64,000 nucleotides of DNA from an uncultured Poribacteria bacterium (GTDB taxonomy: Bacteria > Poribacteria > WGA-4E > WGA-3G). This document shows, piece after piece, positions 15,139 to 18,633 of this stretch (position 1 is the stretch's first letter; each line of letters begins with the position of its first letter). A program made the position numbers and the translations under genes. The stretch spans positions 2,944,001 to 3,008,000 of the forward strand of contig OX638351.1 in NCBI GenBank assembly GCA_951813565.1, given 5' to 3'. The notes beneath the pieces are model-generated. The model searched no databases, was not told where the DNA came from, and worked only from the letters and a program-made list of their open reading frames with translations.

Positions 15139-15908
15139 TATTTTAATAATATCACGTTGTGGACGCAGTATCAAGTGGAATTACATGGATTTCAGGGTTA
15201 TTTATACCATCTCTAAATTATAACTTCCCATTTACAAAAAACGCGTTTAATGTGAATGTCGGACGCACATTCACCAAGCGCAATTCATTGCGCCTCGGAC
15301 ATTCAACATAAGATAAGTTTCAAAATCTCATAGAATCTTCGTAATGGTATTTTATTTATTAGAATTGGTATTAGTTTTCGGGTTTTCTGCTATATTTTTT
15401 CACATTTCTATATAAACTAATACGTATGCAAAGTAGTAGGCACACTCCGTGGGTTTCCGTCCACCCAAAATGTAAAGCGGACGGAAACCCACGCCGCGTG
15501 CCTGCTACCTTTAAATCAACTTAAAGATTTTCGTGATAATGGAATGTTCTCTTTAGTCCCGTGAATCAACGCCAAATACGCCAAATGCCATACGCGCATT
15601 TGGCGTATTTGGCGTTTGGTATTTGTCGGGGCTTGATGTTTATAGTAACCAAGCAATTCAATCTCCTCGCGCCGTAGGTGCGATATGTTTATTCCGTTTT
15701 TGTTTACATATCGCATCTACGGCGCGAAAGAGACTTATCATACTTCTTTCTATAAACGAACTCATAGCGAGTACGAGCTATGAGTTCATTATTAACACGC
15801 ATCAACTGATAATTTTTAAAACTAAATAGCCCTACATGGATTCTATCCATTCAATTCTTTAGCAGTCCCATGATTTTTATGTCAATGTGGAAGGGTTTTG
15901 ATAAAAGA

Positions 15909-15941
15909 ACAGGCAGATACCCAAAACGGATATCTGCCTGT
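15909..15941 (-). terminator. Intrinsic terminator of cassette A
   Basis: ACAGGCAGATATCC-gtttt-GGGTATCTGCCTGT then TCTTTT on minus; homologous to 57976-58013. Confidence 0.8.
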
Positions 15942-15966
15942 AAAATAGGTGATTGAAGATAGAAAC

Positions 15967-17226
15967 CTAATCAGAAGCCCAATGATAGTTATGTGTTCCC
16001 CAATCACTTGTGCAACTACCATTGCTGCAGCGCGTGAAAGAGACACCGCATCCAGGACGTCTACACGTAAATGTTGTCGTGTGATTGTGCGTAGCACCTG
16101 ATACACACGTCCAATAGGTATGCCCATAAGCACAGGTTTGCCTATGGTCTAACCTGTTACTTACTGTCTGCCCACACGCCGCACGCGCACAGATCGCACC
16201 GGGTGGCGGATCCGGTTCAGACGGAGGGGACGGTGCTGGCGTAGGTGTCGGTGTCGGTGTGTTGTAATCACTACCACTGCCACTACTATGCGTGGGGGAC
16301 GGGAAGTTATGGGAATGCGTGGACTCCTGACACAGATAATATCCCTGGCAATAAACAGTCCCGCCATCTTGTGTAATGCTTGCGGGGCAAGAAAGATATT
16401 CATGTGAAGACGCGTACATTCTCACGTTGCTTTTGCTATCCTCGTGGATGCCACACGCATGAACAGCAGCGTGCATATAATCAAGCGGACATATAGTTGT
16501 TTGACAACTATAGTATTCTCTGCCACACTTGGTTCTACGATTTACGCCGGTAAGCCACCGATCCTCTTCACAAATCACGCGATGATGGTATTTGTCAGGC
16601 AGCGCAACCTCACAGCTCTCATGTTCACATTCATACGACTTCGGATATTCCGGTTTCACCGTAAGTGTATGCGTTACGGTATCAGCAGTCTCGGTTGTAT
16701 GAAATGTTATACTGCCAGAACCAGAAAAACCTGTGCCTTGCACCTTTATGCCACCACCACCGGCAACTGCCATAATTTCTGCACTGCCTGTTAACGTATA
16801 AGTGCCCGGTTCTTCTGCATACTTAGAGTTTTTGGACTTCATCCCTGTTGTATCATTATCCCCAAAAATGAAACCGACACCTCTCATTTCAAATTCTTTT
16901 GGTAAGGTCATAGAAAAATTAGGGCCTGAGACGGAACCACTTGGCATGACTCCCACTGTGCCATACCCCCAAGTTTTTTGATACGCTGAAACTTTGGCCC
17001 AAATCTTTGCATCTTGATACCCGACACTCACGATACGCGGATTTGGCGTATCGGTATCTGTCCACTCAAATTTCTCTATGATCTCGGTATCAGATTTACC
17101 TTCAAAATCCCAAATACTGCCAAAAAACGTACCGGAACAATCTCTACCTATTGACTGTAAAGCTACCGTAACATGTAAAAATGTCATCATAAGGACGACT
17201 ATTAAAAGACTCACACGAAATTTCAT
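15967..17226 (-). CDS. Cassette A gene 3: exported protein with Cys/His-rich repeats and Pro-rich linker
   Basis: RBS AAGGAG before ATG 17226; signal peptide MKFRVSLLIVVLMM; repeated C-x4-C...H..C...Y(Y/W)xC...H units; TPTPTPAPSPP linker. Confidence 0.75.
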   Translation of the reverse strand: MKFRVSLLIVVLMMTFLHVTVALQSIGRDCSGTFFGSIWDFEGKSDTEIIEKFEWTDTDTPNPRIVSVGYQDAKIWAKVSAYQKTWGYGTVGVMPSGSVSGPNFSMTLPKEFEMRGVGFIFGDNDTTGMKSKNSKYAEEPGTYTLTGSAEIMAVAGGGGIKVQGTGFSGSGSITFHTTETADTVTHTLTVKPEYPKSYECEHESCEVALPDKYHHRVICEEDRWLTGVNRRTKCGREYYSCQTTICPLDYMHAAVHACGIHEDSKSNVRMYASSHEYLSCPASITQDGGTVYCQGYYLCQESTHSHNFPSPTHSSGSGSDYNTPTPTPTPAPSPPSEPDPPPGAICARAACGQTVSNRLDHRQTCAYGHTYWTCVSGATHNHTTTFTCRRPGCGVSFTRCSNGSCTSDWGTHNYHWASD

Positions 17227-17230
17227 GTTT

Positions 17231-18073
17231 TTATCTCCTTTTTTCAACTTCGGATTCAAGTTCTTTAACAATTGATTCTACGAAAGGTTGCCATTCTGGA
17301 CGCGGACGTTTGGGGCGCTCCATAGATTTCAGCAACTCGTTTTCTTTTCTCGCTATTTCCTCCAACTCGACTCGCTTGGGCTCCCTATTCCATGATATGC
17401 TTGTCGTCACATAGGGGGTCGAACCAGACGCTTTGTATCTAAGTTTATTCAATAACTCACGTGCAAGGTCCTGAACCCCCGGTGCGTAGGTTGCCTTCGG
17501 AAGCGTCTCACCCGCCATCATCCGCTTGATCAGCGGTTGATCTAAATAAAGCAAACTGCCACCCACAATATGCCGTAATGCATGGTATCGGATCCATTCC
17601 GTTTCTGAGAGTTTTGTGTAATCTTGTCCAGGCGACTCTTCTGACCACCCAACTTTAAATCTGGGTTCATTATACTTATACAAACCAGCGACACTTCCAT
17701 CGGCATTATACCGATAGTTGTGGCCATCTGGTGGCGGATCAAGACCTTGCTCTTTCCAATACTTTTCCCATTCCGCTCTTTGAGCATCGGTCACTGGTGG
17801 CGATGGGGCATCAACAGCATGCGGTGCATCGTGCCATTCCCCGTTATGCCAGTGTCCCCCGCCTTCAAACGTTTTGCCGGGCGGTGGCTTGGTGAAATCA
17901 ATAGGCGTTTGTGCCACGACTTCTGGCTTATTCTTGTCTTCAAGCAGTTTTTCGTCTTGTGCAAGCTGTTCTTTGAACTGCTGCACTTCTGACCACTGGT
18001 AATAAATAAAACCACCAGCAGCAATCAATATAACAATGAGGGCTGCTATTCCCCAGTGAAGTTTGCGTTGCAT
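17231..18073 (-). CDS. Cassette A gene 2: membrane-anchored His-motif protein
   Basis: RBS AGGAGG; first ~50 aa nearly identical to 56637-57326; GGHWHNGEWHDAPH motif. Confidence 0.8.
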   Translation of the reverse strand: MQRKLHWGIAALIVILIAAGGFIYYQWSEVQQFKEQLAQDEKLLEDKNKPEVVAQTPIDFTKPPPGKTFEGGGHWHNGEWHDAPHAVDAPSPPVTDAQRAEWEKYWKEQGLDPPPDGHNYRYNADGSVAGLYKYNEPRFKVGWSEESPGQDYTKLSETEWIRYHALRHIVGGSLLYLDQPLIKRMMAGETLPKATYAPGVQDLARELLNKLRYKASGSTPYVTTSISWNREPKRVELEEIARKENELLKSMERPKRPRPEWQPFVESIVKELESEVEKRR

Positions 18074-18331
18074 CTAACGGTCCTCCTGTCTAAGATTCTT
18101 GTTATCCCTGCTATTCGTTGTGTCCAGTGTGCAAGGCTGTCTCGGACTTGGACAGATCAAGCCCGGTTTCAGTACCTCTTTTCTCGACATACATTCGCGT
18201 TTGAATTGTTGTTCGCAAGCAGGCGTATCAATCTGCGTGGCATCTATTGTGCCAAACAGCAAGAAACCGCTTCCGATGATGAATGCGAAAGTAAGAATGG
18301 AGAGAAGAAGTACTTTGTAGTCTCGTCTCAT
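18074..18331 (-). CDS. Cassette A gene 1: 85-aa single-TM peptide with 4 Cys
   Basis: AGGAGG-6nt-ATG at 18331; homologous to 56401-56640; TAG abuts ATG of gene 2. Confidence 0.7.
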   Translation of the reverse strand: MRRDYKVLLLSILTFAFIIGSGFLLFGTIDATQIDTPACEQQFKRECMSRKEVLKPGLICPSPRQPCTLDTTNSRDNKNLRQEDR

Positions 18332-18446
18332 CTTGTGCCTCCTCATTATTTGAGTAGGTTAATTGTTTTGACAGACTACAGAAATGGCAGGTCTGAAATG
18401 AGAAAGTTTTGCTATCCCTGTAGAGGCCGCTGGTCTCTAAAGTGCA

Positions 18447-18475
18447 TTGACACTTCAGAAGGTCTATGCTAAAAT
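18447..18475 (+). promoter_or_regulatory. Antisense sigma70 promoter inside cassette A leader
   Basis: TTGACA-17-TAAAAT with TGn extended -10; identical in copy B. Confidence 0.7.
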
Positions 18476-18481
18476 AGACAC

Positions 18482-18590
18482 CAGCGCTGTCAGATATTTC
18501 CTGGCAGTGCTTCGCATCGGCAGTGGTTTCAGCACTGTCGGTGCATCTAAAAAGCACCTCCGACGTAATCCACGCGAGGCGGATTTTTTT
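18482..18590 (+). ncRNA. Putative ~110-nt cis-antisense RNA (copy A)
   Basis: Downstream of consensus promoter; G-U-containing hairpins 18484-18510 and 18514-18544; terminator-like hairpin plus T7 at 18567-18590. Confidence 0.6.
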
Positions 18591-18604
18591 AACGTCTACG
18601 AGAT

Positions 18605-18633
18605 ATTATAAAACTTTTTGCATTTTTTGTCAA
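18605..18633 (-). promoter_or_regulatory. Sense sigma70 promoter of cassette A
   Basis: Exact TTGACA-17-TATAAT on minus strand. Confidence 0.8.

Follow-up and report, generated by a model that had tools for sequence, protein, structure and literature searches.

The stretch analysed here, a window of 64,000 nucleotides (nt) from an uncultured Poribacteria bacterium (positions 2,944,001 to 3,008,000 of contig OX638351.1, assembly GCA_951813565.1), carries two copies of a three-gene cassette with conserved ends and a highly variable cargo. Poribacteria are uncultured, abundant sponge symbionts with many hypothetical exported proteins that lack an explanation. The genome around the window (G000) is a single contig of 5.43 Mb. 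Two sequencing runs containing the stretch are labelled sponge metagenome, and of the 22 homologues of one cargo protein (copy A gene 3) the five that bear source names are all Candidatus Poribacteria. The cassettes inside the window are referred to as A and B.

Copy A is read from the reverse strand. Its sense promoter (18605..18633), TTGACA-17-TATAAT, matches the consensus at 12/12 positions and is preceded by an AT-rich conserved block, reaching to about 18670, that recurs at unrelated sites. The structured 5' leader (18332..18598, its start inferred from the -10 box) was recognized by its fold (z = -4.3), by covariation and by a covariance model match. On the forward strand within it lie an antisense promoter, TTGACA-17-TAAAAT with an extended -10 TG (18447..18475), and the sequence of a predicted antisense RNA of ∼110 nt (18482..18590). 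Gene 1 (18074..18331) encodes 85 amino acids (aa) with one hydrophobic helix and four Cys, and its start region is complementary to the 3' end of the leader. Gene 2 (17231..18073; 280 aa) has an N-terminal membrane anchor, a His motif and a variable C-terminal domain, and gene 3 (15967..17226; 419 aa) has a signal peptide, an N-domain modelled with low confidence as a beta-sandwich, and Cys/His repeats. An intrinsic terminator (15909..15941) and a lineage-specific tail (15838..15905) complete the copy, both on the reverse strand.

Copy B has the same layout on the forward strand. The sense promoter (56094..56122; TTGACA-17-TAAAAT, 11/12) is followed by the structured leader (56128..56400), which contains on the reverse strand an antisense promoter with an extended -10 TG (56250..56278) and a predicted antisense RNA (56132..56243) whose loops are unlike those of copy A. 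Gene 1 (56401..56640) encodes 79 aa. Gene 2 (56637..57326; 229 aa) has an HGDHFH motif and a helical C-terminus, and gene 3 (57323..57937; 204 aa) consists of a signal peptide, a short helix, a Gly/Ala hydrophobic segment and a Cys/His tail. The terminator lies at 57976..58004 and the lineage-specific tail at 58181..58240, both on the forward strand; an intergenic repeat of ∼160 bp that occurs genome-wide (58021..58180) stands between the two, outside the cassette proper. Genes 2 and 3 abut or overlap.

The original prediction, made from the sequence of the window, was that the two loci share one architecture with consensus promoters, a near-identical leader, a gene 2 alike at its start and then unrelated, a gene 3 not alignable between copies, and the same terminator. 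These points were borne out. In an alignment of 684 nt that reaches from the leader into gene 2, A and B are 79% identical, with 94% identity in the leader core, 65% in gene 1 and 84% in the first 150 nt of gene 2. The terminators are 89% identical over 46 nt. BLASTP confined the likeness of the gene 2 products to residues 1–90 and gave no match between the two gene 3 products at E ≤ 0.01. The leader had been given as 191 nt; near-identity of its core is confirmed and includes an exact block of 125 bp, but it is ∼265 nt long and the antisense promoter inside it had been missed. Neither copy had been thought to hold a transposase, integrase or reverse transcriptase. The six open reading frames (ORFs) of A and B gave no Pfam match over cut-off and no PHROG or NCBIfam match at E ≤ 0.001, and thus no mobility enzyme was recognized.

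BLASTN revealed five further cassettes in the genome, C to G, so that the family is not limited to two copies. The intact copies are A, B and F; gene 3 is missing from C and frame-broken in D and E, and gene 2 is broken in G; ORFs that we take to belong to insertion sequences lie inside E and G. Across the family, the conserved span runs from ∼40 bp upstream of the -35 box to the T-run of the terminator. The ∼55 bp of conserved DNA beyond the terminator, formerly taken as the end of the unit, is present in A and B but otherwise only in E and F (4/7 copies) and in just 6/80 fetched loci, all from three genomes; in B, moreover, it does not follow the terminator directly, as had been supposed, but is separated from it by the genome-wide repeat. 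It was therefore rejected as an element end, and the terminator is the family-wide 3' boundary. Further pairs of a membrane-anchor gene and a secreted gene with the same terminator, behind at least two other conserved leaders, were noticed in G000 near 130, 212, 2043, 3296, 3724, 3855, 5064 and 5391 kb. At L175:230-3700, two tandem cassettes have a common upstream block, a local duplication.

The leader served to trace the family. BLASTN matches to it were found in 31/36 genomes of the genus and in 0/24 genomes of other families. A covariance model built from 33 copies found it in 37/40 genus genomes, with 1–23 matches each, and in 82/92 genomes of one family as compared with 0/48 from eight other families. 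Of the 12 model matches in G000 at E ≤ 1e-8, seven belonged to the cassettes, three were full leaders of divergent sequence and two covered the core alone. A profile search with gene 2 yielded 383 clusters at 50% identity. None of the Rfam 15 covariance models matched the leader at gathering threshold; the best match (E = 0.013; 23.5 bits against a 50-bit threshold) was on the antisense strand, at the hairpin of the ribosome site. Identity as a riboswitch, ribozyme or HEARO RNA was rejected, being without Rfam support. A weak HEARO match does occur at L106, ∼1 kb from the leader, beside a gene that is presumably IscB-like. A 'Poribacteria-1' RNA motif reportedly emerged from a noncoding RNA survey; the term was found in no paper and no Rfam family matched. 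A match to a known family, which would have refuted the original proposal, was not obtained in the hidden Markov model, Rfam and Pfam searches. No description of the cassette system was found in the literature listings and abstract openings searched, a scope that left aside subscription papers, supplements and catalogues of noncoding RNA motifs. We conclude that the cassette family is real, family-wide and, within the literature searched, undescribed.

Comparison of filled and empty sites had been proposed as a check, and sites A and B are empty of the cassette in relatives. At site A, no leader lay beside tmk in 20/20 relatives (two of the stretches were short), and recJ followed tmk at 180–3674 bp in 6 relatives. 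At site B, a terminator was present within 1.5 kb in 0/28 informative relatives, and the flanks were collinear across 171–316 bp in 10 of the 11 relatives compared, versus 2.9 kb in this genome. Exact insertion junctions cannot be fixed between species. An 8-bp direct repeat (window 15183-15190 and 19035-19042) brackets the whole 3.85-kb tmk-recJ stretch; the empty site in relative G020 loosely fits one copy of this repeat, which may be chance.

The promoter-to-terminator unit stands at many sites: 58 distinct downstream neighbours were counted among the 68 loci with a downstream flank. Some of this diversity is due to general rearrangement, since gene order within the genus is fluid. The unit takes along DNA from upstream of its -35 box, and the two reverse transcriptases of the genome are far from the cassettes and unlinked to them, which led us to reject retro-mobility and makes a DNA route more likely than an RNA intermediate. 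One of the regions with a reverse transcriptase (L071/L073; G000 3.989-3.996 Mb) adjoins a long repeat array and, on its other side, a gene that we take to be cas1-like. Neither terminal inverted repeats nor a consistent target duplication were seen across the cassette ends compared. Dispersal by short repeats was also rejected. Those with at least eight occurrences make up about 22% of all non-coding DNA in the genome and 0–97% of 12 cassette flanks, no clear enrichment; some are inserted in the last loop of the leader. A phage vehicle was rejected after a search of 50,697 phage records gave no match and IMG/VR viral contigs gave five pattern matches, of which one was a true leader; of the candidates for the commonest gene 2 type, 0/63 proved true. 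Together with a gene 2 and a gene 3, the one true leader occupies L220:2873-5011 of a 71.6-kb contig, and the neighbours of this cassette had no PHROG match, so the contig may be host DNA.

Exchange of the middle of the cassette by recombination, as originally proposed, is supported by what stands at orthologous sites. Of the 8 sites that different species have in common, 6 carry gene 3 N-domains from different, non-homologous clusters. Paralogues also carry exact patches: 439 bp between D and E, 240 bp at the end of gene 3 between D and F, and the 125-bp leader block of A and B, which lies beside gene 1 sequences just 65% alike. Leaderless orphan gene 3 tails near 463 and 829 kb of G000, which have patches in common with D, E and F, may be donors. 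Divergence is patchy and not uniform, contrary to a simple old duplication. Copy A was also present at the same site in two same-species datasets from other studies. Contigs of its flanks differed from ours at 1/1702 and 3–6/2859 bases (0.1–0.2%), and contigs of its cargo at 85/2138 (dataset X9) and at 61/1627 and 18/865 bases (X7), or ∼2–4%, bearing in mind that contigs near the shared cassette ends may mix paralogues. Within gene 2, codons 197–212 held 13 changed codons, seven of them silent (36 translated variants; 40 listed, 204 others), and this 16-codon stretch looks like an imported tract.

What is exchanged was examined in 62 pairs of gene 2 and gene 3 from 82 loci, with statistics on 44 complete pairs from 16 genomes. 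Clusters of gene 2 C-termini and gene 3 N-domains form blocks, and the commonest gene 3 tail is joined to ten N-types. When two gene 3 N-domains were related, so were the gene 2 C-termini in 52/64 comparisons, as against 111/882 of the others; for the tails of gene 3 itself the figures were 20/64 and 136/882, the compared copies being kin, so that all these counts overstate independence. The gene 2 C-terminus thus moves together with the gene 3 N-terminus; the Cys/His tail of gene 3 is shuffled more freely. As a refinement of the original proposal, the homology arms would be the gene 2 N-terminus on one side and the gene 3 Cys/His tail with the terminator on the other, rather than the 55-bp tail.

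The leader itself has the features of a predicted sense/antisense RNA pair. In its 50-pair structure, 17 pairs show two-sided changes, a number reached by 0/500 shuffles and compared with 5–7 in slid controls. Several invariant loop bases are those of the opposite-strand promoter. Scored in 107 of 109 leaders, this promoter reached at least 9/12 in 94/107, as compared with 4% of shuffles and 9/107 on the sense strand, and the extended -10 TG was found on the antisense strand in 94/107 leaders. Its -10 box is always a consensus-like hexamer (TAAAAT, TATGAT, TATAAT or TACAAT); divergent copies have a weaker -35 box. In A and B, the predicted antisense RNA forms two hairpins of 11–12 bp with 7-nt loops, followed by a terminator-like hairpin and, in A, a T-run. 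Non-Watson-Crick cells in the 5' hairpins are A.C rather than G.T (100 versus 7) and those in the 3' helices G.T rather than A.C (76 versus 6), a wobble bias that assigns the 5' hairpins to the antisense strand and the 3' helices to the mRNA. The 5' half folds better as antisense in 31/33 copies and the 3' half better as sense in 30/33. The antisense hairpin loops are 30% identical, versus 82–86% for the stems. The 3' end of the leader is complementary to the start of gene 1 (-14.3 versus -7.9 kcal/mol; 79/82 loci), and this pairing persists at loci with a truncated gene 1 or with one that lacks its start codon. In 55/82 loci a full gene 1 comes right after the leader; in 27/82 it is absent or cut short. 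Gene 1 spans 65–111 aa, and ORFs of 60–61 aa follow the leader in one sister-genus genome. In the one RNA dataset compared, contigs fell on repeats and recJ and none on the cassette, which is uninformative on expression either way.

The cargo is varied. Gene 2 begins with a hydrophobic helix and in 47/72 cases carries a His motif of the HxDHxH or GHWH type, which we would liken to histidine-triad motifs. Pfam matches at E ≤ 0.001 were obtained for 6/79 cargo proteins, two over cut-off, both to fibronectin III. One class of gene 3 has a full M15 motif and matches Peptidase_M15_3, below cut-off, in 5/5 members. A second class, of two members, has an HEXXH motif and is zincin-like; one member weakly matches M10, M54 and archaemetzincin, and the partner of the other is weakly TPR-like. 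In the commonest class, two long helices are modelled on either side of a hydrophobic segment of low confidence, giving a helical hairpin with a hydrophobic tip. A pore-forming fold went unmatched in fold searches of the cargo models, which do not exclude it, and an aerolysin-like fold was unmatched by the low-confidence model of copy A gene 3. Sequence searches of the PDB yielded no more than weak matches, to lectins and, at E = 1, to M15C. The first downstream ORF begins with a hydrophobic stretch in 21/34 cases (from 35 model matches in six genomes), compared with 333/1027 background ORFs. Divergent leaders lie upstream of restriction-modification genes at L103, L104, L109, L119 and L100, with Pfam support at L104, L109 and L119; other genes behind divergent leaders are of the cadherin, LRR, cohesin/dockerin, PD40 propeller and metallopeptidase kinds. 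Among host interaction, competition and metal binding, which had all been suggested, the M15 and zincin cargo would somewhat favour competition.

Several known systems resemble the cassettes in part. Borrelia vls and Anaplasma msp2 likewise have conserved ends, a variable middle and patchwork gene conversion among paralogues; unlike them, the cassettes have no single expression site with silent donors, and what is exchanged extends over two genes. In polymorphic toxin systems (CDI, Rhs, MafB), a variable toxin domain forms the C-terminus of a constant N-terminal trafficking body. According to Zhang et al. (2012; PMC3482391), the toxin gene precedes the immunity gene and replacement takes place at the 3' tip. 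The cassettes are like them in pairing an exported variable-domain protein with an adjacent, co-varying partner gene and in having both replaced by one recombination event. Unlike in those systems, the variable domain of gene 3 is N-terminal and the shared repeats C-terminal, and the partner is upstream in 62/62 pairs, which were defined in this order. Every cassette copy is a complete, dispersed operon; no second partner gene was found before the terminator at cassette loci, and neither silent orphan arrays nor secretion-system markers were seen with the cassettes. The specificity of CopA/CopT and of ColE1 RNAI is determined by RNA loops. The copy-control region of plasmid R1, CopA/CopT-repA (PMC7667032), resembles the cassettes in the convergent promoter within its structured leader, in its antisense RNA, which is short and has several hairpins, and in a small ORF to which the genes behind it are coupled, coupling being a prediction for the cassettes. 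The cassettes differ in being chromosomal and multi-copy, in heading exported proteins and in lacking Rfam similarity, and no replication or transposition gene was found downstream in 82 cassette loci or among 18 scanned proteins from divergent loci.

From these observations we propose that dispersed cassettes with an exchanged middle are switched by a cis antisense RNA and encode a likely secreted competition effector (gene 3) together with a membrane-anchored protective partner (gene 2), and we put the chance that this account is right at about even. The sense promoter would produce an mRNA whose leader hides the start of gene 1, and the internal promoter an antisense RNA whose two variable loops would confer specificity for its own copy. 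Binding of the antisense RNA would alter translation of gene 1, and genes 2 and 3 would follow by translational coupling, as in CopA/tap/repA. With the gene 2 N-terminus and the gene 3 Cys/His tail as arms, recombination would swap the gene 2 C-domain and gene 3 N-domain as one block, so that effector and partner stay together, and whole units would move as DNA. A bolder version is doubtful in our judgement: the chassis would be self-insulating, with the hypervariable loops as an address by which the 5–20 effector/partner operons of a cell are controlled separately or expressed singly, with recombination continually bringing in new cargo such as peptidoglycan hydrolases, pore-former-like proteins, adhesins and restriction enzymes.

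Several findings weigh against the effector/partner account. When the antisense-bound half of the leader was blocked in silico, the gene 1 start did not shift (0.32 versus 0.25; up in 23/52), so a simple refolding switch was not reproduced, and the switch and its direction stay predictions. Co-inheritance of the gene 2 C-terminus and the gene 3 N-terminus is expected from linkage alone, even if they do not bind, since they are adjacent with no homology at the junction. The commonest gene 3 class has generic fold matches only (helical hairpins, Z ≤ 7.8), the enzyme matches are below curated cut-offs and concern 5/62 cassettes, and cadherin, cohesin, beta-propeller and restriction-modification genes also stand behind divergent leaders. 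For the gene 3 N-domain of copy A the fold match is generic too, to an Ig-like sandwich (Z = 6.5, low-confidence model), and this suits an adhesin as well. It would fit a possible but less probable alternative in which the same chassis and antisense control serve polymorphic surface display, gene 2 anchoring or folding a gene 3 product that acts as an adhesin or decoy for sponge cells, matrix or phage. That copy A models as an Ig/PKD-like domain, that other cargo has fibronectin III domains, that divergent leaders head cadherin, LRR and cohesin/dockerin genes and that no pore-forming fold was matched are all consistent with display. The M15 and HEXXH cargo are enzymes, however, and their gene 2 partners are repeat-like types of their own; one-to-one partner classes also exceed what a generic anchor needs.

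The remaining alternatives concern the regulation and the movement of the unit. Type I toxins are small (about 20–60 aa), hydrophobic and always present. Gene 1 could be such a toxin under a cis antisense RNA, a reading we consider improbable. Like hok/sok, tisB/istR and timP/timR (PMC7667032), the cassettes have, at sequence level, a cis antisense RNA overlapping a long structured leader, a hidden ribosome site (predicted paired in 55/55 copies, with no shuffled control) and a small membrane peptide with a single hydrophobic helix. Unlike the E. coli toxins, for which the same paper gives 18–51 aa, the peptide is longer, is often lost (several loci retain the pairing without an ORF or start codon) and is followed by a two-gene operon that is predicted to be coupled to it. 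It is very improbable, in our estimate, that the cassette is a non-autonomous mobile element relying on an enzyme from elsewhere for its movement, with its copy number limited by the antisense RNA as in plasmids or IS10. The many downstream sites, the empty sites A and B, the presence of lineage-specific tails at new sites and the cassette on an IMG/VR contig would all suit such an element; the cassette ends, at which no inverted repeats or consistent target duplication were seen, the distant reverse transcriptases, the co-travelling DNA upstream of the -35 box (against an RNA intermediate) and the fluid gene order of the genus speak against it. We give almost no credence to old duplications that drifted apart with their ends kept by ordinary selection. 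In their favour, conservation coincides with exactly one transcription unit. They are contradicted by exact patches that adjoin non-homologous DNA, by cargo that is unrelated at orthologous sites and by an imported-looking tract within a species.

Elsewhere in the window, three tandem ORFs (51055-53468, reverse strand; 156, 97 and 149 aa) have the same start of ∼24 residues and then diverge; the third matched neither a Pfam family over cut-off nor an NCBIfam family. A small membrane gene that is next to a phosphoesterase gene in relatives is fragmented over ∼5.6 kb, with pieces at 54738-54837, 50479-50571 and 49200-49424. Two tRNA genes lie at 42584-42751 on the forward strand.

The finding groups hundreds of hypothetical exported proteins of Poribacteria into one system with defined exchange points, and adds an RNA family that is absent from Rfam and has an unusually clear two-strand signature. 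The inverted layout of the exchanged block would be a mirror-image solution to the problem of keeping an effector and its partner together during recombination. If the bolder version with loops as addresses is true, the cassettes would give a dominant sponge symbiont an RNA-addressed armoury that extends across the family and has no described counterpart.

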